From: Clostridia bacterium
GTDB taxonomy: Bacteria; Bacillota; Clostridia; Oscillospirales; CAG-272
Length of the DNA: 64,000 nt
Direction of reading: 5' to 3'
NCBI GenBank assembly: GCA_017503325.1
Contig: JAFVTI010000034.1
Location: 29,840 to 93,839 of the forward strand
In this document: piece by piece, positions 1,888 through 44,818 of the stretch
Layout: every line of letters begins with the position of its first letter
How positions within the stretch are numbered: the first letter of the stretch is position 1
Translations under genes and position numbers: made by a program
The notes under the pieces: generated by a model
Databases searched by the model: none
Told to the model about the DNA's origin: nothing
Seen by the model: the letters and a program-made list of their open reading frames with translations, nothing else

Positions 1888-4098
1888 TCAATTTTTGGTA
1901 ATACGAATATTATCCACGTCAAAGCAGGTCCATCCGCGTGCAATGAGATGGATCTCACGGTCAGTGGTGACCAATGCGTCGGTCACGTCGAGCAGCAGAG
2001 CACCGTTTGCATCCATTAGCTTGACCGTGCGCATATATGTGTAGTCACTTGCCGGATACGAGCCTTGGTCGCCAAGCTCCGCATAGCAGAGCAGCTGATT
2101 GTTGACGAAAATATTGATCCTGTCACCGTTGTCTTCGATTGTGAAGGTGTTGAATTCGTTCCCCAACGCCAAATCAAAGAATACGGATTGCGAGGCAACC
2201 TTGTAGCCGTCCCCCTCGGGCAGGTATTGCTTGATCGCAATACGTACACCGTTTTCGGTGGGATAGAGCATGATGCCGCTGCCACCAACCAAGAGATTGG
2301 TATCCTCTTCGTGATGAGCCAGCTTGCGATCAGCGCTGCGTACCGCAATACCGCCAAGGCGCTCCGAGGGACCGCCTACCGTTTCGCTGCTCAGCAGTCG
2401 CCAATCCAGCGAAAGGGTATAATTGTCGGCCAGCGCACCGTTCTTGAGGCCGGCCACAAAATAGGCAGTATTGCGCAAAAAGCGATTGCCGTCCTTCTCG
2501 GTGACCGTAGCTGCGGGGCGACCGATCTCTGAGTAAAGCGAGAACAGCACGCTCCAGGTATTTCCGAAGGTCCCGCTCAACTCCGTGGTGCCTGCTTCAA
2601 GATCCTCAAAATCGCAAGTGCTTGAATAAACTGTGGGTGCGACTTCAATAAAGGCACGAACGGGATAGGTTTGGCTGCCAAGCGTAGCGGTGCCATTGAT
2701 CACAGCCTCACCGGAAACGGACGTATCAACCTCTCCTTCCCACATGGCCTGTGCGCTCGTGCGGAATCCATTGCCCATCAGAACGTCAACAAAGGAGGGA
2801 AGCGCGTACGTATTGCCAACCGAGGTGTAACCCCATACGTCAAGCGCCTTGAGCGCTTGGGGCGCAGAGTCCTCTGCATCATACTTCACGGTCTGTTCCC
2901 CATGTGTAGGGCCGAGAATGGGCGCATTGGTTGCAGGATCAATGGCGATCAGACCGTATGCCTCATCGAAAATCACCTTGTCGATGGTCATCTGTACGCC
3001 CTGTACAACTCCACCGCCTGTGACGTGTGCTGCGATCCAAAGACCGCCGTCCGGGCCTTGGAAGATCGAGTTATGACCGCATTCACGGTATTTGTCCTGG
3101 TGCAGGTAGTATCCGTCTTGATATTTGCCGCCGTAATAGTCGCAGCGCTCTTGGCTCATGGCACCGTACATGGGATTTTCGTACATGGTCCAAGGGCCGT
3201 TGATATCATCCGCAACCGCAACACCGATCTCGTATCCTCTTGCCCATGTGGAGTAGAAGCAGTAGTAGCGTCCCTCGTGCTTGAGTACGTAAGGCCCTTC
3301 AAAGCCAACGTCAGGGCGTTCGGCATTCCATTTGTCTGAATTGGGGATGGGAGAGATGATCTGCTTTGCAGAGGACAAAAAGTGCAGATTTTCAAGATCA
3401 AATTTTGCCATCCATATGCCCGAGGCAAACAGGTAAATCTGTCCGTCGTCATCGGCAAACAGATGGGCATCGTTGCCAAGTGCCAGCGGTGCGTTGGGAT
3501 TCATAATGGTGTAGGGGCCTTCAATGCTGTCAGCTACGGCAAACAAAAAGCCGTGATTGCTGCCGTCCAAAGCGCAGCAGTTGACGGTGACGTAATACTT
3601 CCCGTTATGTGCAAACAGCTCGGGCGCCCAAAAGCGCTCGCTGTACCATTTGTTTTCAGACTGATCGGGTGTTTTGACGATATAATCAATAAACTCCCAA
3701 TGCAAAAGGTCGGTGGATCTGTAAAGCGGAACCCCCTTGGTACGGTCGGCCTGGTTTTCTTCCATGCCGTAGGGAGGGAGTGTGCCCGTCATGTACCAAG
3801 CGTTATCAACCTTTAAGATAAAGGGGTCACGAACGTGATCCACGCCGCTGTTGTTTTGATAGCTCAGCGGATTTGCCCATGTAAAGCTTTCGCTGTCGGG
3901 GGTGGGCTCAACAAGCTCGGTTGTTACGGGTTCGGTCACGCTTTGCGTACCTCCTTGTGTGGATTCAGATGGTTCGGTGTGCGGCGGCTTTTCCTGCGGT
4001 GTGCAGGAGCACAGCAGCGCAAGTGCCAGCGTGCTTGTCAGCAGAATCCTGATGAATGAACGAAAATGGGGACTTGCCTTTTTTCGGGAATGCTTCAT
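1888..4098 (-). CDS. GH43 family glycoside hydrolase lipoprotein with Ig-like and C-terminal beta-sandwich domains
   Basis: Lipobox LLCSC, T/E/P-rich linker, GH43 motifs RDPFI, FWAPE, DAHLF and EGPY. Confidence 0.85.
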   Translation of the reverse strand: MKHSRKKASPHFRSFIRILLTSTLALALLCSCTPQEKPPHTEPSESTQGGTQSVTEPVTTELVEPTPDSESFTWANPLSYQNNSGVDHVRDPFILKVDNAWYMTGTLPPYGMEENQADRTKGVPLYRSTDLLHWEFIDYIVKTPDQSENKWYSERFWAPELFAHNGKYYVTVNCCALDGSNHGFLFAVADSIEGPYTIMNPNAPLALGNDAHLFADDDGQIYLFASGIWMAKFDLENLHFLSSAKQIISPIPNSDKWNAERPDVGFEGPYVLKHEGRYYCFYSTWARGYEIGVAVADDINGPWTMYENPMYGAMSQERCDYYGGKYQDGYYLHQDKYRECGHNSIFQGPDGGLWIAAHVTGGGVVQGVQMTIDKVIFDEAYGLIAIDPATNAPILGPTHGEQTVKYDAEDSAPQALKALDVWGYTSVGNTYALPSFVDVLMGNGFRTSAQAMWEGEVDTSVSGEAVINGTATLGSQTYPVRAFIEVAPTVYSSTCDFEDLEAGTTELSGTFGNTWSVLFSLYSEIGRPAATVTEKDGNRFLRNTAYFVAGLKNGALADNYTLSLDWRLLSSETVGGPSERLGGIAVRSADRKLAHHEEDTNLLVGGSGIMLYPTENGVRIAIKQYLPEGDGYKVASQSVFFDLALGNEFNTFTIEDNGDRINIFVNNQLLCYAELGDQGSYPASDYTYMRTVKLMDANGALLLDVTDALVTTDREIHLIARGWTCFDVDNIRITKN

Positions 4099-34603: not shown

Positions 34604-35044
34604 TCAACCGTTGTTTTGAAGATGCGCCAAAAGCTTTTTCATGGCCTCGCTGTAGCTGTCAAAGCCAAGACCTGTCACGCGCACCACGCATACGGGGGTG
34701 ACGTAAGAAATATGACGAAATGCCTCGCGGCTGTCCACGTCAGATAAGTGTACCTCGGCCGAGGGGATCTCCACGGCGGCAATCGCGTCGGCAATGGCCA
34801 CGCTTGTGTGCGTGTAAGCGGCGGGGTTGATCACAATGCCGTCGTATTTGCCAAGCGCGTCCTGAATGGCGTCCACGATCACGCCCTCGTGATTGGTCTG
34901 CATGATGTCGACCTCAATGCCAAGCGCGGCGGCGGTTGCCTTGATATGCTCGCAAAGCGCGGCGTAGGACTTGTTGCCGTAAATGGCGGGCTCACGACGG
35001 CCAAGCAGGTTGAGATTGGGGCCGTTGATGACTAAAAACTTCAT
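34604..35044 (-). CDS. aroQ: Type II 3-dehydroquinate dehydratase
   Basis: INGPNLNLLG-REP--YG, INPAAYTHTS and EVHLS. Confidence 0.96.
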   Translation of the reverse strand: MKFLVINGPNLNLLGRREPAIYGNKSYAALCEHIKATAAALGIEVDIMQTNHEGVIVDAIQDALGKYDGIVINPAAYTHTSVAIADAIAAVEIPSAEVHLSDVDSREAFRHISYVTPVCVVRVTGLGFDSYSEAMKKLLAHLQNNG

Positions 35045-36267
35045 AAAATTACCTCCAAAATGCGTGCGGCAACCGCTTCGGGTGTGCCATCGTTGGGGAT
35101 TATGGTATCTGCAAATGCACGGTAGAGCGGCTCGCGGATGCGGTACATATCGGCAAGCTTATTTGCCTGTGAGAGCGGTCTGCCGTCGCAGGGGAGATCT
35201 TGCAGCGGACGTGTCAGCCAAACGACCGTACCGTTTTGCTCCAGCGGGTACCGGTTTTCGGGGCGGGTCACAACACCGCCGCCCGTGGCGATGATCTGCC
35301 CGTGAGCGGCACCCACCTCGCAGACGACTTGGTGCTCGATGGCGCGAAACGTATTCTCGCCATCGTCAGCAAAAATCTCGGGGATGGATTTGCCCGCCTT
35401 TTGCACGATCAGCGCGTCGGTGTCCACGAATTTCTTGCCCGTCAGGGTCGCAAGTATTGCACCGATGGTGGATTTGCCGCAGCCCGGCATGCCGATCAGT
35501 ACGATATTTGCGCTCTCGGCTGCAAAGGTGCGCACGATGCGCTCGATCTGCGCGGTGTCCACGGGTGTGCCTGTAAAGCGCTCGTGTCCCGCAGCCGCCT
35601 GCGCGACCAGCATGGAAAGACCGTTGGTACAGGGAATGCCAAGCTGCTCGGCTTGCGCCAAGAATGCGGTGCGCGCGGGATTGTAGATCATGTCCGCCGC
35701 GCCGCAAAGATGCGGGAATTGGGTAAGATCCACAGGTGAGATGCCCGATTTCGGGTACATGCCCACGGGCGTGCAGTTGATGATGACCTGGGCGTCGCCG
35801 TGCAGGCTGTATACGTTGTCGTAATTGACCTCTCCCGAGCGCGAAACGATGACCACCTCGGCAGCGTCCGCATCACGCGCGACCGCAACTGCTGTCTTGG
35901 ATGCACCGCCCGAGCCAAGGATCAGTACCTTTTTGCCTGCAAGAGCAATGCCTGCGGACGAAAGCGCATAGGAAAAGCCGAAATAGTCGGTGTTGTCGCC
36001 AAGCAAGGTGCCGTCCGCACGACGCGTGACGGTGTTGACCGCGCCCAGCTTCTCGGCAGCAGGGGTCAGCGCGTCAAGGAAAGGGATCACGACTTGCTTA
36101 TATGGAATTGTCACGTTCATACCCACATAATCGCCGTGTTTGACAAACTCTCCCACCTCGTCGGGAGCAAGCTCCTTCAAGGTGTAGTCGGGATTGCCCA
36201 GCATGGCGTGGATCTGGGGCGAAAAGCTGTGCGAGAGATGCTCGCCGATTAAGTAAAAATGGCTCAT
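35041..36267 (-). CDS. aroE: Shikimate dehydrogenase-shikimate kinase fusion (AroE-AroK)
   Basis: HSFSP-IH, NVTIPYK, NTD and GSGG, then IGMPGCGKST, ATGGG and RPL. Confidence 0.93.
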   Translation of the reverse strand: MSHFYLIGEHLSHSFSPQIHAMLGNPDYTLKELAPDEVGEFVKHGDYVGMNVTIPYKQVVIPFLDALTPAAEKLGAVNTVTRRADGTLLGDNTDYFGFSYALSSAGIALAGKKVLILGSGGASKTAVAVARDADAAEVVIVSRSGEVNYDNVYSLHGDAQVIINCTPVGMYPKSGISPVDLTQFPHLCGAADMIYNPARTAFLAQAEQLGIPCTNGLSMLVAQAAAGHERFTGTPVDTAQIERIVRTFAAESANIVLIGMPGCGKSTIGAILATLTGKKFVDTDALIVQKAGKSIPEIFADDGENTFRAIEHQVVCEVGAAHGQIIATGGGVVTRPENRYPLEQNGTVVWLTRPLQDLPCDGRPLSQANKLADMYRIREPLYRAFADTIIPNDGTPEAVAARILEVIL

Positions 36268-36417
36268 ATCAATTTCCATGCCGCCTTTGGCGGCTCAAAT
36301 AGTGATGGAAACTTCACCGTGGAGCTTTGCTCCAAAAATGGGCCGAGACCCATTTTTAGGTGAAGTTTATGCGTGAATGGTTGCGTATAAAGGAATATCA
36401 CGTGAACTTTCACGCTA
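36262..36417 (-). mobile_element. 156-bp structured intergenic element (family E), copy 1
   Basis: 153/156 identical to 43610-43765 in inverted orientation; nested hairpins; runs from the upstream TAG to the downstream ATGAGC. Confidence 0.75.
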
Positions 36418-37248
36418 GAACTCCATGAGTGCGGGGATTGCCCTGTAAGGGAAGGATGCGCGCTGATCGGATGTCAACAAGTGCTCGGCCTGCAGCAGCG
36501 CGTAAGCAAAATTGACTTCAATATCGTTTGCGGTGCGGTCGAAGGCAAATTCGCCGCATTGTGCATAGTCGAGATCGCTGTTGCGCTTGCCTGTAAAGCG
36601 TTGGCGGTTGTAAAGAATTTTGGCAATATTGAGGCGCGTGCTGCCCTCGTTTCTGCTGACTGTGGCAACGTATGCGGGGGCACTGTCGGCATACAGGCAG
36701 CACTTTCTGTGCCCGCCCTCTTCAAAGTATTCAAGAAACGTGTAGCAAAGGTCGCAGAGCGAGGCGGGAGATACCTTGATCTTATCTTCCCCGACAAGTG
36801 CGTCCGCATCGTCCTCTTCAAAGGAGGGATTGCCAAAGCACAGGTAAAGATCCCCGTCAATCGCTTCGATTGTCATCTCGGGCGAGGAAATGCTGTACTT
36901 GCGGCGCAGGGCGTCGCAAGCCTCGGTATAAGCCGAGTCGGAAAGCTCGTAGGGCGTGATCTCACCCTCGATCTGCTCGGCACAAAGCAGAGCACACAGG
37001 CGTGTATTGAATTTGGACTTGCTCTCCAAAAACATCTTATTGCTCTTGAAAAAGGCCGCACCCTTTTCGGTCAGCGCGTATCCTTCGATATATCCGCCTG
37101 CGCAAAGCTTGCCGAGAGAAAAGGCAAGCGCACCTTTTGAGAGCGGATAGGGCAGAGAGGCGCAAGCGGCCTCCAAGAGCGCATCAAGCGCGGTCTTTTT
37201 GTCGCGAATGGCGGCAAGCACCTTGTAATCAATGACTGTATAAAACAT
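36415..37248 (-). CDS. Hypothetical protein with possible N-terminal winged helix, inside the aro operon
   Basis: 277-aa ORF, RBS AAGGGGG directly after the aroC stop; L---GYI--Y-LT-KG wHTH-like segment. Confidence 0.75.
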   Translation of the reverse strand: MFYTVIDYKVLAAIRDKKTALDALLEAACASLPYPLSKGALAFSLGKLCAGGYIEGYALTEKGAAFFKSNKMFLESKSKFNTRLCALLCAEQIEGEITPYELSDSAYTEACDALRRKYSISSPEMTIEAIDGDLYLCFGNPSFEEDDADALVGEDKIKVSPASLCDLCYTFLEYFEEGGHRKCCLYADSAPAYVATVSRNEGSTRLNIAKILYNRQRFTGKRNSDLDYAQCGEFAFDRTANDIEVNFAYALLQAEHLLTSDQRASFPYRAIPALMEF

Positions 37249-37257
37249 AAAGCCCCC

Positions 37258-38343
37258 TTATTCGTCAAGCAGAAGATCGACCATGGCAAGTGCTGCCGCA
37301 GCCTCCACAACGGGTACTGCGCGGGGCACAATGCAGGGGTCGTGTCTGCCCTTGATTTGCAGCTTGGTATTTTCCATGCGGGAGCAGCTGATGCTGTCCT
37401 GTTCCTTGGCGATCGAGGGCGTGGGCTTGATGGCCACCGTGAACAGAATGGGCATGCCATAAGTCATGCCGCCAAGTATGCCTCCTGCGAAATTGGTGGC
37501 GGTATAGATATCGGAGCCGTATGGCAGGATCAGGATGGGATCGTTATTCTCCGAGCCGCGCATTTCGGCAACGGCAAAGCCTGCGCCAAACGAAATGCCC
37601 TTGACTGCAGGAATGCCCCACACAGCCTCGGAGATGGCACTTTCCACCGAGCGGAACATGTGCTCGCCAAGGCCCGCGGGCACGCCCACGATCTTGCATT
37701 CGATCGTGCCGCCCACCGAGTCGCCATCGGCGCGCGCGTCCGCAATGATTTGCTTCATCTGCTCGCCTGCTGCCATGTCAAGCACGGGAAAATCGGGATC
37801 AGCATAAGCGTCAAACGTGCTGCCCACGGGATCGTAAGGCGTATCGCACACACCGCCGATACACAGCGCGTGCGCGCCGATGCGGATGCCCTTGGTGGCA
37901 AGGTATTGCAGGCAGATGCCGCCCGCTACGCACATAAGTGCGGTCAAGCGTCCCGAAAAGTGTCCGCCGCCGCGCAGATCCACCGCGTCACCGTACTTCA
38001 GTCGCGCGGCAAGATCGGCGTGGCCGGGACGGGGAACGTCGAAATCATAGTCCTGTGAGCGGGTGTTGGTGTTGTAAATGACCGCCTCGATGGGCGAGCC
38101 GTCTGTATAAAGCAAGCCGTCCGCGCCCTGTGTCATGCCGCTTTTGAAGTGCGGCTGATCGGCTTCTTTGCGCGGGGTGGACCAAGCGTTCTGCCCGGGG
38201 GCGCGACGCGCAAGGAAGGCCTGCAGCACGGTCATGTCTACGGCAATGCCTGCGGGCAAACCCGAGAGCGTCATGGAGATCTCGGGGTCGTGCGAGCCGC
38301 CGCGGATGTCCAAGCGAATATTTTTTCCGTAAGGATGGGGCAT
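37258..38343 (-). CDS. aroC: Chorismate synthase
   Basis: RPGHAD, GGGHFSGRLTA, KPTPSI and GRHDPCIVPRA. Confidence 0.97.
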   Translation of the reverse strand: MPHPYGKNIRLDIRGGSHDPEISMTLSGLPAGIAVDMTVLQAFLARRAPGQNAWSTPRKEADQPHFKSGMTQGADGLLYTDGSPIEAVIYNTNTRSQDYDFDVPRPGHADLAARLKYGDAVDLRGGGHFSGRLTALMCVAGGICLQYLATKGIRIGAHALCIGGVCDTPYDPVGSTFDAYADPDFPVLDMAAGEQMKQIIADARADGDSVGGTIECKIVGVPAGLGEHMFRSVESAISEAVWGIPAVKGISFGAGFAVAEMRGSENNDPILILPYGSDIYTATNFAGGILGGMTYGMPILFTVAIKPTPSIAKEQDSISCSRMENTKLQIKGRHDPCIVPRAVPVVEAAAALAMVDLLLDE

Positions 38344-38355
38344 AAAAAGCTCCTT

Positions 38356-39615
38356 TCAGTGTGTTTGGCAGAGCAGGTCAAGCTGCTCCCAGAAGGTGGG
38401 GTAGGATTTGGCCACCGCCTGTGCGCCCTCGATGGTAACGGGGGCTTGGCAGCCAAGCGCGGCAACCGCAGCGGTCATGGCGATGCGGTGGTCACCGTAT
38501 GCGTCCACAAAGCCGCCTGAAAGCGCGGGCTTGCCCACAATGACAAGACCGTCGTCGGTCTCTCGGACGTCTGCACCAAGAGCCGTCAGTACAGCCGTGG
38601 TGGTGGCAAGGCGGTCGGATTCCTTGATGCGAAGCCGTGCCGCCCCCGTAATGCGTGTCGTGCCCTCGGCTAAAGCGGCGGTTGCCGCGATCACGGGCAC
38701 GAGATCGGGAATGTTTGCCGCGTTCAGGGCAATGCCGCGTAATGGTGCGGGCGTGACCGTGATTGCGTTTTCGCGCACCTCGATTTGTGCACCCATATCC
38801 GAAAGCACCGACAAGATGGCCTTATCTCCTTGGCCGGATGCGGTATCAAGACCGGTCACGGTCAAGGGGTGCTTGCCCACAGCACCCATGCAAAGCCAGG
38901 GCGCTGCGCCCGACCAGTCGCCGCCCACGGTAAGCGTGCCGGGCGAGGTAAAGCGTGCGTGCGCGGGAATCGTCAGCACGCCGTCCTGCTCCCTGACCGC
39001 AATGCCAAAGGCGGCAAGGGCGGATAGCGTCATGTCAAGATAAGGGCGTGATTCGATCTTTCCGATCAAGCGGATGGTCGCGGGAGTATCGAGATCAAGC
39101 AGCGGGAGCGCGAAGAGCAGACCGCTGACAAATTGCGAGGAAATACCCCCGACAATGGAAAAATCGTTGCCGGAAATTTTGCCCGATACCTCCAAAGGGT
39201 TTGAACCTTTTGGAGAGAGAGTCGCGCCGTGCTCCGAGAGCAGCGTATCAAGAGGCGAGAGCGGGCGCGCGGGCAGCCTGCCGTGCAGGTGCAGCTGTGC
39301 TTTTGTGCCCAGCGCACAGATCACGGGCAAAAGAAAGCGCAGGGTAGAGCCGGATTCGCCGCAATCCATGGTGGCGGTGTCCGGGATATTCTTTATGGGT
39401 GTGACGTCAAAGCCGTCTTGCGTGCGCTCGATGGATGCACCCATCGCGCAAAGGCAGGAGATGGTGGCGTCAATGTCGTCGTTGGAGGCCGCGCACACAA
39501 TATGCGTGGGCATGTCTGCGAGGGCGGCGCAGATCAGGTATCTGTGCGCCTCGGACTTGGAAGGAAACGAGGGAAGCGTGCCGCGCGGTGCGGGGGTGTG
39601 AAGCGTTACTTGCAT
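38356..39615 (-). CDS. aroA: 3-phosphoshikimate 1-carboxyvinyltransferase
   Basis: PSKS-AHR, CGESGSTLRF, SSQFVSGLL, R-KESDR and DHRIAM. Confidence 0.97.
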   Translation of the reverse strand: MQVTLHTPAPRGTLPSFPSKSEAHRYLICAALADMPTHIVCAASNDDIDATISCLCAMGASIERTQDGFDVTPIKNIPDTATMDCGESGSTLRFLLPVICALGTKAQLHLHGRLPARPLSPLDTLLSEHGATLSPKGSNPLEVSGKISGNDFSIVGGISSQFVSGLLFALPLLDLDTPATIRLIGKIESRPYLDMTLSALAAFGIAVREQDGVLTIPAHARFTSPGTLTVGGDWSGAAPWLCMGAVGKHPLTVTGLDTASGQGDKAILSVLSDMGAQIEVRENAITVTPAPLRGIALNAANIPDLVPVIAATAALAEGTTRITGAARLRIKESDRLATTTAVLTALGADVRETDDGLVIVGKPALSGGFVDAYGDHRIAMTAAVAALGCQAPVTIEGAQAVAKSYPTFWEQLDLLCQTH

Positions 39616-39626
39616 AGCGCACCTCT

Positions 39627-40679
39627 TCAGGCAAGACCCTTGGCAAACCAAGTGCCAACGTCCGCAGCGGGAATTTTGCAAAGACGGCTGTCCCCGATGG
39701 CGTAAGGCACGACCAGCGTGATGCTGCCACCCGCGCGCTTTTTGTCGGAAAGCGCGGCCTTGGCCAACTCGTCTGCGCCGAAATCGCAGGAAACGGGCAA
39801 GCCGAGCTGCTTTGTCAAAGAGAGCAGCTCGTCAAGGTCAGCGGTAGGGCAAAGTCCCTGTGCCACGGCCGCACGCATGATGGTCACGGTGCCGATTGCT
39901 ACCGCAGAACCGTGCGAAATTTGGAAATTGGAGCATTTTTCAATCGCGTGCGCCACCGTATGCCCAAGGTTGAGCAGCTGGCGCATCCCGGTGTCAAATT
40001 CGTCCTTTTCCACCACGTCGCGCTTGTTTTGCACGCAGCGCGCGATGATCTGCTCGGATGCGGGCGAGATGCCGTCCTCCAGCATCGAGAAAAGCGCACG
40101 GTCGTTGATCACACCGTATTTGATCACCTCGGCGCAACTGTCCGCAAAGATCTCGGGCGGCAGAGACGAGAGCGTGTCGGGGTCACAGATCACAAGGCGG
40201 GGCTGATAGAATGCGCCCGCCAAATTTTTACCCGCGTCCAGATTGACCGCGGTCTTGCCGCCCACAGAGGAATCCACGCAGGCAAGCAGCGTGGTGGGAA
40301 TTTGCACAAAGGGAATGCCGCGCAAATAGACCGAGGCGCAAAAGCCGCAAAGGTCGCCTACCACGCCGCCGCCAAGCGCAAACATGGCGTCGGTACGCGT
40401 GTATTTGTGCTCTGCCAGGTGCTCAAGCAAGGCACCCAGCGTACCAAGCGATTTGGAGCCCTCGCCGTGCGGCACCACGTACACCTCGGGCACAAAGCCG
40501 GCTGCCGTCAAGGAGGCGGACAACGCGTTTGCATACAGGGGTGCTACGTGATCGTCGGTCAGGATCAGCGCACGGCAGGGGGAGAGCACCTCTTTTGTAA
40601 GCTCACCCGCGCGCGCAAACAGACCCTTGCCCACCAGCACGTCGTATTTTGTTGAAGCGTTTACTTGGATGGTGATCAT
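39627..40679 (-). CDS. aroB: 3-dehydroquinate synthase
   Basis: GGGVVGD, PTTLLA-VDSSVGGKT and LNLGHT. Confidence 0.97.
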   Translation of the reverse strand: MITIQVNASTKYDVLVGKGLFARAGELTKEVLSPCRALILTDDHVAPLYANALSASLTAAGFVPEVYVVPHGEGSKSLGTLGALLEHLAEHKYTRTDAMFALGGGVVGDLCGFCASVYLRGIPFVQIPTTLLACVDSSVGGKTAVNLDAGKNLAGAFYQPRLVICDPDTLSSLPPEIFADSCAEVIKYGVINDRALFSMLEDGISPASEQIIARCVQNKRDVVEKDEFDTGMRQLLNLGHTVAHAIEKCSNFQISHGSAVAIGTVTIMRAAVAQGLCPTADLDELLSLTKQLGLPVSCDFGADELAKAALSDKKRAGGSITLVVPYAIGDSRLCKIPAADVGTWFAKGLA

Positions 40680-41527
40680 TTGCTCGTCTTCCTTCCGTCA
40701 ATCTCTTCCTTAGCCACTCTGCCCTCGGCCAAAAGCTTTCGCAGGGTGTCTTTGTCTTTCGCCTCTATGGCGTCGCGGTATTCGGTCAGGGACGCGATCA
40801 AAGCGTCTATCTCATCAAGCAGGGGCTCGCTGTTTTGCAAAAAAAGCTCGCTCCACATATATTCGTTCAGCCATGCCACGCGGGTCATATCCTTGTAGCT
40901 GCCTGCCGAAAAGCCCTTGTGCGCGCGAGCGGTGGGGCTTTTGACGTAGGCGTTGGATACCACGTGTGCAAGCTGCGAGGTAAAGGCGATCATGCGGTCG
41001 TGCTCCTTGGCGGTGCTGACTGTAATCGAGCCAAATCCCATAGGGGAAAGCGTGTCCTTGACGCGGCCCAAGAGGGCAATGTCCTCGTAGGTGGGGGGCA
41101 CGATGACCATGGGCGCGCCCGCAAACATGTTGGCGCGTGTGTATTTGATGCCCGAATTGTGCGTGCCCGCCATGGGGTGGCCGCCCACAAAGCAAAAGCC
41201 GTATTGCTTTGCCAGGGAAAATCCAACCTCACACACCTGCTCCTTGACGCCGCAAAGATCCATGAGGATACAGTCCTTGGAGAGCAAGGGGGCGATTTGC
41301 TGCATGTATGCAACAGAGGCATCGGGGTAGAGTGCGACCAAGACAAGGTCGCATTCGGGCAGCGTTGTCTCGTCCAAGGTGGCGTCGATCATGCCCGAGA
41401 GCAGCGCGTAGCTTTGCGAGGTGGGGTCTTTGTCATAGCCCAGAACGCGGATTTCGGGCGCGTTTTGTTTATAAGCCTTGGCGGCAGATCCGCCGATCAG
41501 TCCAAGGCCGCAGATTCCAACTGTCAT
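40676..41527 (-). CDS. tyrA: Prephenate dehydrogenase
   Basis: GLGLIGGS, GGHPMAG, HD--IA-TSQL-H and D-TRVA. Confidence 0.93.
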   Translation of the reverse strand: MTVGICGLGLIGGSAAKAYKQNAPEIRVLGYDKDPTSQSYALLSGMIDATLDETTLPECDLVLVALYPDASVAYMQQIAPLLSKDCILMDLCGVKEQVCEVGFSLAKQYGFCFVGGHPMAGTHNSGIKYTRANMFAGAPMVIVPPTYEDIALLGRVKDTLSPMGFGSITVSTAKEHDRMIAFTSQLAHVVSNAYVKSPTARAHKGFSAGSYKDMTRVAWLNEYMWSELFLQNSEPLLDEIDALIASLTEYRDAIEAKDKDTLRKLLAEGRVAKEEIDGRKTSK

Positions 41528-41542
41528 AAAGGGGCTCCTTGA

Positions 41543-42556
41543 TCAGTGCTCGATATCGGTAATGGCGTCCAGCACAAGGCGTACGTGACGCATGGTCTTG
41601 TCAAATTGCTCGGGGGTCAGCGATTGCGCACCGTCGCACATGGCATGCACGGGATCGTTGTGCACCTCAATCATCAGTCCGTCCGCGCCTGCGGCAGCGG
41701 CAGCCAATGCCATGGGCTCAACAAGCTTTGCAGAGCCGGTTGCGTGGCTGGGGTCTACGATCACGGGTAGGTGAGAAAGCTCGTGCAGCACGGGCACGGC
41801 CGAGAGATCCAGCGTATTGCGCGTATAGGTCTCAAAGGTGCGGATGCCGCGTTCACAGAGAATCACGTTTTCATTGCCGCCTGCCATGATGTATTCGGCA
41901 GACATGAGAAACTCCTTGAGCGTAGCCGCAAGACCGCGCTTGAGCAGGATTGTCTTTTGCGTTTTGCCAAGCTCCTTGAGCAGCTCAAAATTCTGCATGT
42001 TGCGCGCGCCCACCTGAATCACGTCCACCTCTTCAAACATGGGCAGGTGGTTTGCGTTCATGATTTCGGAAACAATGGGGAGTCCGGTCTCACGCTTTGC
42101 GTGCAGCAAGATCTCAATGCCGTCCGCCTTGAGTCCCTGGAAATCGTAAGGAGAGGTGCGGGGCTTGAAAGCACCGCCGCGCAGCATGGTCGCACCGCTT
42201 TGCTTGACCGCACGTGCAATCTCTGCCACCTGCTCCTCGCTCTCCACCGAGCAAGGGCCTGCGATCACGGCAAAGTGGCCGTCACCCACCAGGGTGTCGC
42301 CCGCACGGATGACGCTGTTGTCGGGGTGGAATTTTCTGTTGGCACTCTTGAAGGGCTCGCTGATCCGCTTGACCGTCTCCACGTAGGAAAGGCTGCCCAA
42401 AAGATCCTCGTCAATGCGTGTGGTATCGCCCACAAGACCCACGATGGTCTGGTATCGACCGGTCGAGAGGTGAACGGTCAGCCCCTGGGAGCGGATCCAG
42501 TCGGCAAGGCTTTGGATTTGTTGTTCGGTAGCACCCGGTTTCAAAACGGCAATCAT
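41543..42556 (-). CDS. aroF: DAHP synthase (type I-beta)
   Basis: [25 protein letters not shown] and DPSHATG. Confidence 0.97.
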
Positions 42557-42593
42557 GGTAAGAGTCCTCCTTGGAAATGGTCTGCAAGATCAG

Positions 42594-42667
42594 AAAATAA
42601 AAAATACCGCAGCTTTTACTGCGGCGTGTCAGATTTTACATAAAAAACGAATGACATGGCAGCAAAA
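42594..42667 (-). terminator. Attenuator: terminator with overlapping antiterminator
   Basis: Terminator CCGCAG-TAAAAG-CTGCGG plus U-rich tract (42624-42594); alternative pairing TTTTGCTGC(42667-42659)/GCAGTAAAA(42622-42614). Confidence 0.75.
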
Positions 42668-42677
42668 ATCACCTTTA

Positions 42678-42734
42678 TTATCCGGCGTAGGCGTAATAAA
42701 GGAAGATATCGCTGTTTGCAAACGCGTGTTTCAT
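42678..42734 (-). CDS. Putative aro operon leader peptide MKHAFANSDIFLYYAYAG
   Basis: AAGGAG RBS; 18 codons with F-L-Y-Y-A-Y near the end; tandem TAA stops. Confidence 0.8.
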   Translation of the reverse strand: MKHAFANSDIFLYYAYAG

Positions 42735-42762
42735 GCAAATTCTCCTTATATTTTATACGATA

Positions 42763-42791
42763 AGTGTAGCACGCGCGGGGGCTTTTGTCAA
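42763..42791 (-). promoter_or_regulatory. sigmaA promoter of the aro operon
   Basis: TTGACA-17bp-TACACT with TG upstream of the -10. Confidence 0.7.
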
Positions 42792-42913
42792 GGGCGTTGG
42801 AGAAATTTCTTGCGTTTTTGTAGACAAAGCAAGCAATTTCTGTTATAATAAGACTATGGACAATCAAATTTTGAACGGATCATCCCAAAAAGAGATGGGA
42901 GCGGGAGGAATCT

Positions 42914-43612
42914 ATGTTTTATACCGCAATTTGTGACGACGAATCGGTCTTTTCCGAAAAGGCCAAGGCGTTGATCGACCAAATCCTTGACGAAAAGGGC
43001 ATTACGCACCGTACCGATTGCTTTTCTTCCACCGATGAATTGCAGGCGGCCATGCGCAAGTGCGACTATGCGCTGCTGCTTCTGGATATCGTCATGGATA
43101 AGCAAACGGGGTTGGAGTTTGCCACCGAGCTGCGCCGTGCGGGCAGCCGCGTCAATATTATTTTTATGACCTCCAGTGCAGAGTTTGCCCTGGATGCATA
43201 CGAGGTGTACCCCTTGACCTATCTTACCAAGCCGGTTGACCCCATCAAGCTGCGCAGAGCTTTGCAGATGTGCCTGGAAAAGATGGAAAAGCAGCCAGGA
43301 CTTGTCATCAACGACCGCAAGCTTGGGCAGGTCATGGTGGAATACGACGACATTCTGTACCTGGAGAGTCAGAAGCACGATATCGTGGTGTACGCCCGCG
43401 ACGGCCAGCAGTATACCTTTATGGGCAGCTTTGAGGCGTTTTGCGAAAAGCTGCCGACCGATATCTTTTTCCGTTGCCATCGCTCGTACAGCGTCAATCT
43501 GCGGCATACCGGCCGTATCAGCAACCGTGAGTATACCATGCGCAACGGGGCCGTGATCCCCATCTCGCGCACGCAGTATAAGCTGGCGTGTGACAAATTT
43601 GCAGGACTTTAG
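42914..43612 (+). CDS. LytTR family response regulator
   Basis: AICDDE, LLLDI-M, YLTKPV and FFRCHRSY-VNL. Confidence 0.93.
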   Translation: MFYTAICDDESVFSEKAKALIDQILDEKGITHRTDCFSSTDELQAAMRKCDYALLLLDIVMDKQTGLEFATELRRAGSRVNIIFMTSSAEFALDAYEVYPLTYLTKPVDPIKLRRALQMCLEKMEKQPGLVINDRKLGQVMVEYDDILYLESQKHDIVVYARDGQQYTFMGSFEAFCEKLPTDIFFRCHRSYSVNLRHTGRISNREYTMRNGAVIPISRTQYKLACDKFAGL

Positions 43613-43765
43613 CGTGAAAGTTCACGTTATATTCCTTTATACGCAACCATTCACGCATAAACTTCACCTAAAAATGGGTCTCGGCCCATTTTTGGAGCAA
43701 AGCTCCACGGTGAAGTTTCCATCACTATTTGAGCCGCCAAAGGCGGCATGGAGATTGACATGAGC
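43610..43765 (+). mobile_element. 156-bp structured intergenic element (family E), copy 2
   Basis: Matches copy 1; begins with the LytTR stop codon TAG and ends with GGAG-ATTGAC-ATGAGC of mutY. Confidence 0.75.
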
Positions 43766-44818
43766 TTGCCCAAATCAATGGTGCAGCCGCTGCTGATCTG
43801 GTATGCAGAGAACGCGCGAAAGCTGCCCTGGAGACAAGATATTACTCCGTATCGCGTATGGATTTCGGAGATCATGCTGCAGCAGACGCGCGTGGAGGCG
43901 GTTAAGCCGTATTTTGAACGCTTTATGCGCGAGCTGCCTGACGTCAAGTCCTTGGCAGAGGTGCCCGAGGAGCGGTTGCTCAAGCTGTGGGAGGGGCTGG
44001 GATACTACAGCCGCGCCCGCAATCTGCAAAAGGCGGCAAGGCAGGTGTGCGCCGAGTACGGCGGGGAATTGCCCACAGACCCCGCGCAGCTGCAAAGGCT
44101 TTGCGGCATTGGCGCGTATACCGCAGGCGCGATTGCGTCGATCGCGTTTGGCCGCAGGGCCCCCGCGGTGGACGGCAACGTCATGCGCGTCTGGGCAAGA
44201 CTGACGGCCGATGGGCGCGATATTCTGCAGCCCGCCGTGCAAAAAGATGCAAGAGAGGACGTGGCTGCCATCATTCCCGCAGATCAGGCAGGGGATTTTA
44301 CCCAGGCAATGATCGAGCTTGGCGCAACCGTCTGCGTGCCCGCAGGGGAGGCAAAGTGCGGCGTGTGCCCCTTGCAGGCGTTTTGCAAGGCTTTGTCCGA
44401 GGGCATGGTGGACGAGCTGCCCGTCAGATCCAAGGCAAAGGCCCGCAAGCGCATCGATATGACCGTGCTTCTCATCCACGACGGCAAGCACGTGCTGCTG
44501 CATAAAAGACCGGACACGGGGCTTTTGGCGGGTATGTACGAGTTTTATCAGACCGAGGGTGTCATGGATGCGGCGATGGCCGCGCAGCACGCAGGCGAGA
44601 TGGGATTTGAGGTGCAAGAGGTCAGCGAGCAAATTGCGGCAAAGCATATTTTTACGCACCTTGAATGGCACATGACGGGATATGCCGTGCGCGTGGCAAG
44701 CGTTGATACAGCGCCCGCGCATCTTTGTGCCGCCACAAAGGGAGAGATGGGCAGCACCTATCCCATTCCCGGTGCGCACCGTGTCTATCGGGAAAGAGCA
44801 GAGCAATTATTGAATTGA
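43760..44818 (+). CDS. mutY: A/G-specific adenine glycosylase
   Basis: WISEIMLQQTRV, WEGLGYYSRARNL, GIG-YTAGAIASIAF, VDGNV and C-x6-C-x2-C-x5-C. Confidence 0.96.
   Translation: MSLPKSMVQPLLIWYAENARKLPWRQDITPYRVWISEIMLQQTRVEAVKPYFERFMRELPDVKSLAEVPEERLLKLWEGLGYYSRARNLQKAARQVCAEYGGELPTDPAQLQRLCGIGAYTAGAIASIAFGRRAPAVDGNVMRVWARLTADGRDILQPAVQKDAREDVAAIIPADQAGDFTQAMIELGATVCVPAGEAKCGVCPLQAFCKALSEGMVDELPVRSKAKARKRIDMTVLLIHDGKHVLLHKRPDTGLLAGMYEFYQTEGVMDAAMAAQHAGEMGFEVQEVSEQIAAKHIFTHLEWHMTGYAVRVASVDTAPAHLCAATKGEMGSTYPIPGAHRVYRERAEQLLN

Follow-up and report, generated by a model that had tools for sequence, protein, structure and literature searches.

A very probable tyrosine-sensing leader-peptide attenuator upstream of the aroF shikimate operon in a clostridial genome

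Introduction

Within a stretch of 64,000 nucleotides (nt) of contig JAFVTI010000034.1 (the window, whose positions are used throughout), the Clostridia bacterium assembly GCA_017503325.1 (2.7 Mb in 54 contigs) carries on the minus strand a shikimate operon, aroF-tyrA-aroB-aroA-aroC-orf277-aroEK-aroQ. A gap of 357 nt separates aroF from a LytTR response-regulator gene that points the other way; read on the minus strand, this gap contains a promoter, a Shine-Dalgarno (SD) sequence, a short open reading frame (ORF) rich in tyrosine codons, hairpins and an intrinsic terminator. The locus thus raises the question of how, and in response to which signal, the step from this leader into aroF is controlled. 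Leader-peptide attenuation is a textbook mechanism, and a sequence-only reading of this DNA had proposed a trpL/pheL-type attenuator sensing tyrosine ahead of the operon. The core of this reading was supported in all sequence-level tests presented here, and we conclude that the leader is very probably a tyrosine-sensing, ribosome-mediated transcription attenuator of the operon.

Results

Elements of the aroF leader

The predicted elements, all on the minus strand, are the following.

42791-42786 and 42768-42763: promoter, -35 TTGACA and -10 TACACT, with a 17-nt spacer and TG at 42771-42770 (spacer end TG-C)
42742-42747: SD sequence AAGGAG, 7 nt 5' of the leader ATG
42678-42734: leader ORF MKHAFANSDIFLYYAYAG, 18 codons plus TAA (ATG at 42734, TAA at 42680-42678)
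42698-42693 and 42689-42687: Tyr codons of the leader
42722-42720 and 42704-42702: Phe codons of the leader
42677-42675: second in-frame TAA, directly after the leader stop
42709-42714: region 1, CAGCGA, within the ORF from the third base of codon 7 through codon 9; partner of TTGCTG in region 2
42672-42702: inner hairpin, CCTTTATTA (42702-42694, Leu/Tyr codons) with TAATAAAGG (42680-42672, stop codons)
42652-42668: region 2, TTTTTGCTGC (42668-42659) plus TGTCA (42656-42652); partner of region 1 or of region 3
42614-42631: region 3, TGACA (42631-42627) plus GCAGTAAAA (42622-42614); 3' side of the antiterminator
42667-42659 with 42622-42614: antiterminator, TTTTGCTGC with GCAGTAAAA, nine pairs of which one is G-U, plus TGTCA/TGACA
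42594-42625: intrinsic terminator, GCCGCAGT-AAAA-GCTGCGGT (42625-42606), and T tract ATTTTTTATTTT (42605-42594)

The aro promoter is of the extended -10 type, scoring 10/12 with the TG in a promoter scan, and its hexamers are nearly constant across 15 aligned sequences of the genus (-35, 15/15; -10 region, 14/15); transcription would start near 42756, about 200 nt ahead of aroF. The encoded peptide contains three Tyr, in a YY-A-Y arrangement, and two Phe. The terminator stem comprises eight pairs, with the T tract next to it, and the aroF ATG (42556) follows 49 nt past that tract, preceded by its own SD sequence AAGGAGGA (42572-42565). This terminator cannot serve the gene upstream, because that gene is divergent. 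The antiterminator 3' arm consumes GCAG of the terminator 5' arm as well as the terminator loop, so that the two structures are mutually exclusive.

The sequence-only reading had located the promoter, the SD sequence, the 18-codon ORF, the stem over the Tyr codons, the antiterminator and the terminator correctly, base for base. It had missed the pairing of ORF codons 7 to 9 with the 5' arm of the antiterminator.

Conservation of the leader ORF within the genus

In a DNA search over 60 relatives, eight further genomes from the genus proved to carry the complete leader (67-87% identity), and the Tyr leader is present in 9 of the 16 genus genomes. All nine leaders keep the SD sequence (AAGGAG, GAGGAG or TAGGAG), the ATG, the reading frame and the tandem TAATAA, and all nine encode the peptide core (F/L)LYY(Y), most relatives having YYY, with TAT and TAC interchanging. 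The first ten codons, in contrast, are variable (MRHAFAISD, MKHAFANSD, MKHLLDNGN, MSKRFDTSN, MFFAFVCSD and MAHLFRFCD). The single difference in length is an in-frame 3-nt deletion, corresponding to one TAT-type codon, which gives the window 18 codons and its relatives 19. Since frame, SD sequence, stops and Tyr core are kept while the N-terminal codons drift, selection appears to act on the translated Tyr codons and not on the peptide. This conservation is the decisive support for the predicted leader ORF, which on these grounds we take to be real. Furthermore, TTTTTGCTGC is invariant in the nine leaders, as is the terminator stem within the genus.

Aromatic mini-ORFs beside a terminator are rare in this genome. 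A scan of its 2.7 Mb found 153 mini-ORFs of 8-40 codons that have an SD sequence, an ATG and at least three aromatic residues in a five-residue stretch; only four of these are followed by a terminator within 120 nt, the aroF leader being one of them.

Leader peptides upstream of aroF in other Clostridia

To look beyond the genus, we scanned the 450 nt upstream of aroF in 80 loci around AroF relatives, of which one, having less than 300 nt of upstream sequence, was excluded. An SD-preceded ATG ORF of 8-40 codons was counted as a mini-ORF if at least three (or, more strictly, at least four) of five residues were aromatic. The numbers of loci with such an ORF are as follows.

Upstream of aroF, sense strand: 69/79 (at least three), 67/79 (at least four)
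Upstream of aroF, opposite strand: 1/79, 0/79
Region further upstream: 1/79, 0/79
Inside aroF, sense: 0/79, 0/79
Inside aroF, antisense: 2/79, 1/79
Shuffled sequences: 38/1580, 3/1580

Three of the ten loci without a mini-ORF have one that lacks the SD pattern, and in one aroF stands behind another gene. Counted over 77 leaders (1827 residues), the predicted peptides, such as MKSIFVFAYYYYFTMDS, MNKLFATAYYYYFFSREKR and MRNTAFVAAYFYYFYFYFTE, contain 301 Tyr, 325 Phe and 9 Trp, and in 75 of the 77 the mini-ORF stop is separated from aroF by a hairpin with a T run. The closest public AroF relatives come from uncultured Clostridia and Eubacteriales and from Oscillospiraceae/Acutalibacteraceae-type genomes of animal guts; cultured carriers are Sporobacter termitidis, Flintibacter faecis, Hominicoprocola fusiformis, Aminicella lysinilytica and a Pseudoflavonifractor.

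Upstream of aroF in the sampled Clostridia, a predicted leader peptide is therefore the rule (69/79 loci). The earlier view that the case is unusual, Firmicutes normally placing such operons under T-boxes, does not survive this count: the mechanism proposed for the aroF leader is already known, and judged from these sequences the element is common in related Clostridia.

Competing helices in the leader RNA

The 209-nt leader folds with a minimum free energy (MFE) of -54.5 kcal/mol (z = -3.46 relative to shuffles). Its MFE structure includes a composite 1:2 stem, in which CAGCGA (42714-42709) pairs with TTGCTG (42665-42660) and encloses the hairpin of Tyr and stop codons; the same stem appears in the RNAalifold consensus of the nine genus leaders and in the single-sequence folds of all nine, with a G-U pair becoming A-U in two species. 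In the window, the 1:2 composite is computed at -22.9, the 2:3 antiterminator at -15.1 and the terminator at -12.7 kcal/mol, and the topology is the same in nine of nine leaders.

The outer nine pairs of the antiterminator can form in 9/9 genus leaders and its inner five pairs in 71% of cells; moreover, in every one of the nine the antiterminator is the MFE structure of the RNA segment that begins 6 nt beyond the stop and ends immediately ahead of the terminator 3' arm. Each of the three pairings is thus the favoured fold of its own stretch. The terminator loop is GTAAAAG in seven of the nine Tyr leaders, and both variants still pair as U-G, whereas in the leaders of sister species that have neither the upstream ORF (uORF) nor the antiterminator the loop varies (TTTGAT, TGTGAT, TCTGAT, GCTTCA, GCTTTA, TATCGT). 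We regard the kept loop as an indirect sign of antiterminator pairing.

Effect of the ribosome position on the fold

The ribosome was modelled as a mask of 28 nt, reaching from -15 to +12 around the A-site codon, an assumed size. The probability of the terminator at equilibrium proved a non-discriminating measure under masking, dropping on stalling in just 5 of 75 leaders. Because of this, we used the state that precedes the terminator 3' arm, and computed the probability that the 5' arm is already paired before the 3' arm exists.

For the window, this pre-pairing probability was 0.14 with no ribosome on the leader, 0.65 for a ribosome at the Tyr codons and 0.68 for one at the stop codon. The model thus agrees with the proposal that stalling at the Tyr codons frees the antiterminator. 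The companion proposal, that a ribosome at the stop masks the antiterminator, appears marginal: under this mask a ribosome on the stop codon would fail to cover the antiterminator, because 13 nt separate the start of the arm from the first base of that codon. In the 67 leaders from other genera, stalling raised pre-pairing relative to the ribosome-free state in 44, lowered it in 3 and left it tied in 20, and relative to the stop state raised it in 44 and lowered it in 8, counts that overstate independence because the genomes are kin.

Proposed mechanism and points against it

The signal sensed would be the availability of charged tRNA-Tyr and, less strongly, of charged tRNA-Phe, with the 18-codon leader translated during transcription. 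The presence of tyrA as second gene of the operon fits this reading. When tyrosine is plentiful, the ribosome would pass the Tyr codons, reach the tandem TAA TAA and depart, whereupon region 1 (CAGCGA) and the Tyr-codon arm of the hairpin could pair with the post-stop stretch (TAATAAAGG ... TTGCTG). Region 3 would thereby be left free, the terminator (GCCGCAG/CTGCGGT) would form, and RNA polymerase would halt at the T tract. When charged tRNA-Tyr is scarce, the ribosome would stall on TAT TAC, and on the TAC two codons on, covering region 1 and the 5' arm of the inner hairpin. Region 2 would then stay single-stranded and, once GCAGTAAAA and TGACA are transcribed, pair with them, using up half of the terminator and allowing read-through into aroF. 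Translation of the ORF, ribosome stalling, the timing of these steps and the response to tyrosine are all inferred. The four sequencing runs consulted for expression consisted of assembled contigs, and the one metatranscriptome among them matched relatives at under 99% similarity. The mask model favours an off state in which the ribosome leaves at the tandem stops and 1:2 refolds over one that relies on a ribosome resting on the stop codon.

Several observations weigh against this mechanism. The TTATTATTA run of Tyr codons doubles as a hairpin arm, so that its conservation within the genus could in part reflect RNA structure and not codons. Seven of the 16 genus genomes have the same promoter and terminator without a Tyr ORF. 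A ribosome at the stop leaves the antiterminator unblocked in the mask model (0.68, compared with 0.65 when stalled), and termination in times of plenty therefore has to be assumed to follow from fast release and refolding. Furthermore, the equilibrium probability of the terminator is about 0.96-0.98 at every ribosome position; with the terminator dominant at equilibrium, the decision of the switch must be kinetic, as in classical systems. Finally, no compensatory double changes were found in the 1:2 helix, the antiterminator or the terminator among the nine genus leaders.

Conserved Tyr codons and covarying stems had both been named earlier as what a comparison of aroF upstream regions should reveal. 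The Tyr codons are indeed kept; covariation is confined to the inner hairpin and does not extend to the helices of the switch. Within the genus, double changes affect only this hairpin and its apical stem (three pairs), and antiterminator covariation does not exceed the shuffle control. Genus covariation is uninformative either way, because the pairs are near-invariant and the sequences too alike. In a cross-genus alignment of 20 leaders the inner hairpin is the sole consensus helix, and two of its pairs show changes in both partners. By our reading of the sequences, the register of the 1:2 helix seems to differ in other genera, and for this reason it was not counted as covariation.

Is tRNA charging the signal? 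The mini-ORF might instead be translated while the response depends on nascent-peptide arrest by free Tyr or Phe, or on general translation speed. TnaC provides a precedent, its ribosome being arrested by the nascent peptide in response to tryptophan. The (F/L)LYY(Y) core is kept as peptide in 9/9 genus leaders, many leaders outside the genus share an FA(N) motif, and codon sensing and peptide sensing are inseparable from sequence alone. However, over the 77 leaders the aromatic runs vary in order, length and position (YYYYF, YFYFYF, FFYFFF), and the remainder of the peptide is unconserved, as codon sensing predicts. The FA motif, in our reading of the sequences, falls on the part of the RNA that would pair with region 2. 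Induction by an excess of the amino acid would, moreover, have the wrong sign for a biosynthetic operon. We therefore judge sensing of the peptide or of translation speed to be very unlikely.

Genus members without the Tyr ORF, and orf277

The Tyr leader precedes aroF in the seven genus genomes examined for this, and in two of them tyrA was confirmed as the next gene. One further species (G001, locus L010) has a Tyr leader, MAHLFRFCDILLYYSTFFA, with the same terminator directly before aroC, followed by orf277, and not before aroF; the predicted attenuator is thus kept through the rearrangement of the operon in this species. Conversely, seven genus genomes have the same promoter and terminator stem in a short leader directly before aroB. 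These leaders share a conserved hairpin, CTGTATGCG ... CGCAGACAG, have a variable terminator loop, and contain neither an aromatic mini-ORF nor an antiterminator. Across the genus, every Tyr ORF observed belongs to an operon with aroF or aroC as its first gene, and none was observed before aroB. The loci with uORF-less leaders are the following.

L011, L012, L013, L015, L021 and L027: uORF-less leader
L140, about 3350-3770: uORF-less leader
L141, about 3310-3730: uORF-less leader

The window AroF had no match in five of the seven uORF-less genomes, which are metagenome-assembled genomes 71-91% complete; TyrA-like fragments occur in two of these five. Elsewhere in their genomes, uORF-less species (loci L117-L120, in G004, G005, G012 and G007) encode a different DAHP_synth_1 protein of 342 residues, directly after another ORF and with no mini-ORF or terminator-like leader upstream. 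Judged by its sequence motifs, this protein may be of the feedback-inhibited AroG/AroH type.

The product of orf277, the unnamed ORF of the operon, was matched by no Pfam or NCBIfam family, even with E relaxed to 1, and its matches to Atlas features (at most 0.84) were uninformative. An intact copy (61-94% identity) is present in 15/15 genomes searched within the genus, and a search of 25 genomes from other genera recovered none. Its AlphaFold model (pLDDT 78.9, pTM 0.75) had no Foldseek match in the PDB at E of 0.001 or below; structural comparison gave similarities to winged-helix regulators for residues 2-79 (RosR, MarR, PadR; Z up to 7.9) and to Pur-alpha for residues 124-260 (Z 6.4, root-mean-square deviation 3.5, 112 aligned residues), both of them middling.

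These findings bear on a second alternative, in which the ORF is incidental and a protein or small molecule, the orf277 protein being one candidate, chooses between the 1:2 and 2:3 pairings. Any regulation in the seven genomes that have promoter, terminator and conserved hairpin but no Tyr ORF would have to be ORF-independent, and both the restriction of orf277 to the genus (15/15 compared with 0/25) and its model, with a winged-helix-like N-terminus and a PUR-like C-terminal domain, would suit such a role. However, this alternative leaves unexplained why SD sequence, ATG, frame, a 3-nt indel and tandem stops are maintained in 9/9 leaders, and why aromatic mini-ORFs occur at 69 of 79 loci in genera that lack orf277. 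In addition, we saw no repeated protein-binding motif and no Rfam riboswitch match, and the structural matches of orf277 stay below Z = 8. A switch operated without the ORF is accordingly improbable, to about the same degree as peptide sensing. Least probable of all is a constitutive partial terminator beside a chance ORF, or an ORF whose small protein product serves a separate function outside attenuation: we found no point in its favour, chance is excluded by the scan controls (0-2/79) and the 9/9 conservation, and a small protein sits poorly with an N-terminal half that drifts, a Tyr run as the only part kept, and a constant position beside a terminator that overlaps an alternative helix.

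Relation to known attenuation systems

Tyrosine-sensing attenuation by a leader peptide, the reading that we prefer, resembles trpL-trpEDCBA and pheL-pheA in having a leader ORF with regulatory codons, alternative 1:2, 2:3 and 3:4 helices and a terminator before the first gene (mechanism summarised in PMC11802643). It differs in the genes regulated, in the use of Tyr codons instead of Trp or Phe codons, and in a stop that lies 13 nt before region 2. The trpL stop, by comparison, is only a few nt before region 2.

Two systems described for aroF itself come closer; both were compared with the window leader by their published descriptions only. In Corynebacterium glutamicum, the aroF operon is preceded by aroR, a Phe-Tyr-Phe leader (Neshat et al. 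2014, as summarised in PMC11802643). According to that summary, it shares with the window a short Phe/Tyr leader ORF before an operon that begins with a DAHP synthase gene, stalling raising transcription; it belongs to the Actinobacteria, has Phe-Tyr-Phe and responds to Phe limitation, whereas the window has Tyr-Tyr(-Tyr) and tyrA in the operon. The second, uORFC-13-1 of Acholeplasma aroF, is a candidate uORF with promoter, ribosome-binding site and start codon, followed by an intrinsic terminator (Brewer et al. 2021, PMC8632094). It too lies just before the aroF terminator, and sensing of aromatic amino acids by translation speed has been proposed; it is known from Acholeplasma and environmental sequences only (24 examples), relies on a U run encoding at least one Phe, and is itself a prediction.

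T-boxes (RF00230) likewise read tRNA charging and choose between terminator and antiterminator, but they bind uncharged tRNA directly and without translation, unlike the aroF leader of the window, which spans about 200 nt with an ORF inside. 'Regular' leader peptides in place of T-boxes have been described in Firmicutes for hisS (Naville and Gautheret).

We found no description of a clostridial Tyr/Phe aroF leader-peptide family in the literature covered, most subscription journals lying outside that coverage. Some attenuators are reportedly among the predictions that Vitreschak et al. made in 2004 for low-GC Gram-positives. The aroF leader had no match at E up to 10 to the Rfam leader families (Trp_leader, Phe_leader, leu/phe leader); in 41500-44000, the only Rfam matches at E up to 10 were MicC (E 2.3) and mir-4679 (E 2.6-3.2), which we read as noise. 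Twenty related aroF loci gave no matches at gathering score, and Rfam 15 has no matching model.

Little is added to the mechanism, leader-peptide attenuation being textbook, and the relevance of the element lies in annotation and gut-microbe physiology. Judged from the loci sampled, the first committed step of aromatic amino-acid synthesis in much of the Clostridia appears to be under an uncatalogued Tyr/Phe leader peptide and not under a T-box, and such mini-ORFs with their terminators, missing from Rfam, are easily mis-annotated. The genus itself offers a natural comparison between nine genomes with the Tyr leader and seven with the same promoter and terminator before aroB and no ORF.

The operon and T-boxes elsewhere in the genome

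The genes of the operon, assigned by Pfam and NCBIfam except for orf277, and the divergent neighbour are the following.

41543-42556, minus strand: aroF, DAHP (3-deoxy-7-phosphoheptulonate) synthase with an N-terminal ferredoxin-like domain (Pfam DAHP_synth_1, 9.5e-78; DAHP_snth_FXD, 1.4e-23)
40676-41527, minus strand: tyrA, second gene of the operon
39627-40679, minus strand: aroB
38356-39681, minus strand: aroA
37258-38343, minus strand: aroC
36415-37248, minus strand: orf277, an unnamed ORF of 277 codons between aroC and aroE/aroK
35041-36279, minus strand: aroE/aroK fusion
34604-35044, minus strand: aroQ
42914-43612, plus strand: divergent LytTR response-regulator gene

The assignment of aroF is also supported by NCBIfam NF006421 (484.8 bits, cut-off 335). 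The remainder of the operon after aroF spans 34604-41527; its genes overlap or are at most 15 nt apart, except for 135 nt before aroE/aroK, and the aro genes are probably co-transcribed.

The T-box model RF00230 had no match in 41500-44000 at E up to 10. Elsewhere in the genome it matched seven places, one of them above the Rfam cut-off. These T-box-like leaders precede a class-I synthetase of the Ile/Leu/Met/Val type, pheS, tyrS (twice), a pyridoxal-phosphate (PLP) enzyme and helix-turn-helix (HTH)-cupin-AMP-binding proteins, of which one of two was checked by Pfam. By this reading, the organism would sense charging of tRNA-Tyr through a T-box for the synthetase and through a leader peptide for biosynthesis.

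The two leaders before tyrS ORFs, at C5:3014-3285 and C40:50288-50559, each score 80.7 bits (cut-off 93), and the two ORFs, one of which was checked by Pfam, are identical over their first 200 residues. They represent either a duplicated tyrS or one region assembled twice.

A palindrome upstream of the promoter and a possible second layer of control

A perfect 10-bp palindrome, AGAAATTTCT (42803-42812), precedes the aro -35 hexamer by about 11 nt; it is perfect in 10 of 15 aligned genus sequences and near-perfect in the others; it is a possible protein-binding site. All 16 genus genomes have in common the aro promoter, this palindrome upstream of it, the terminator stem and orf277, whose modelled product combines a winged-helix-like domain with a PUR/Whirly-like nucleic-acid-binding one. 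A second layer of control, with the orf277 protein acting as a sensor on the palindrome or on the leader hairpin in the seven genomes without a Tyr ORF, is conceivable, although we consider it unlikely. If it exists, the orf277 product would be a new regulator of the shikimate pathway, acting by attenuation or as a repressor, alongside the ribosome-mediated switch of the other nine.

An inverted repeat at 42801-42841, flagged by the mir-4679 match, was also considered and set aside, its left half being unconserved: only AGAAATTTCT and the hexamers of the divergent promoter are conserved there. That promoter, TAGACA-17-TATAAT with TG (11/12, at 42821-42849), would serve the LytTR regulator gene.

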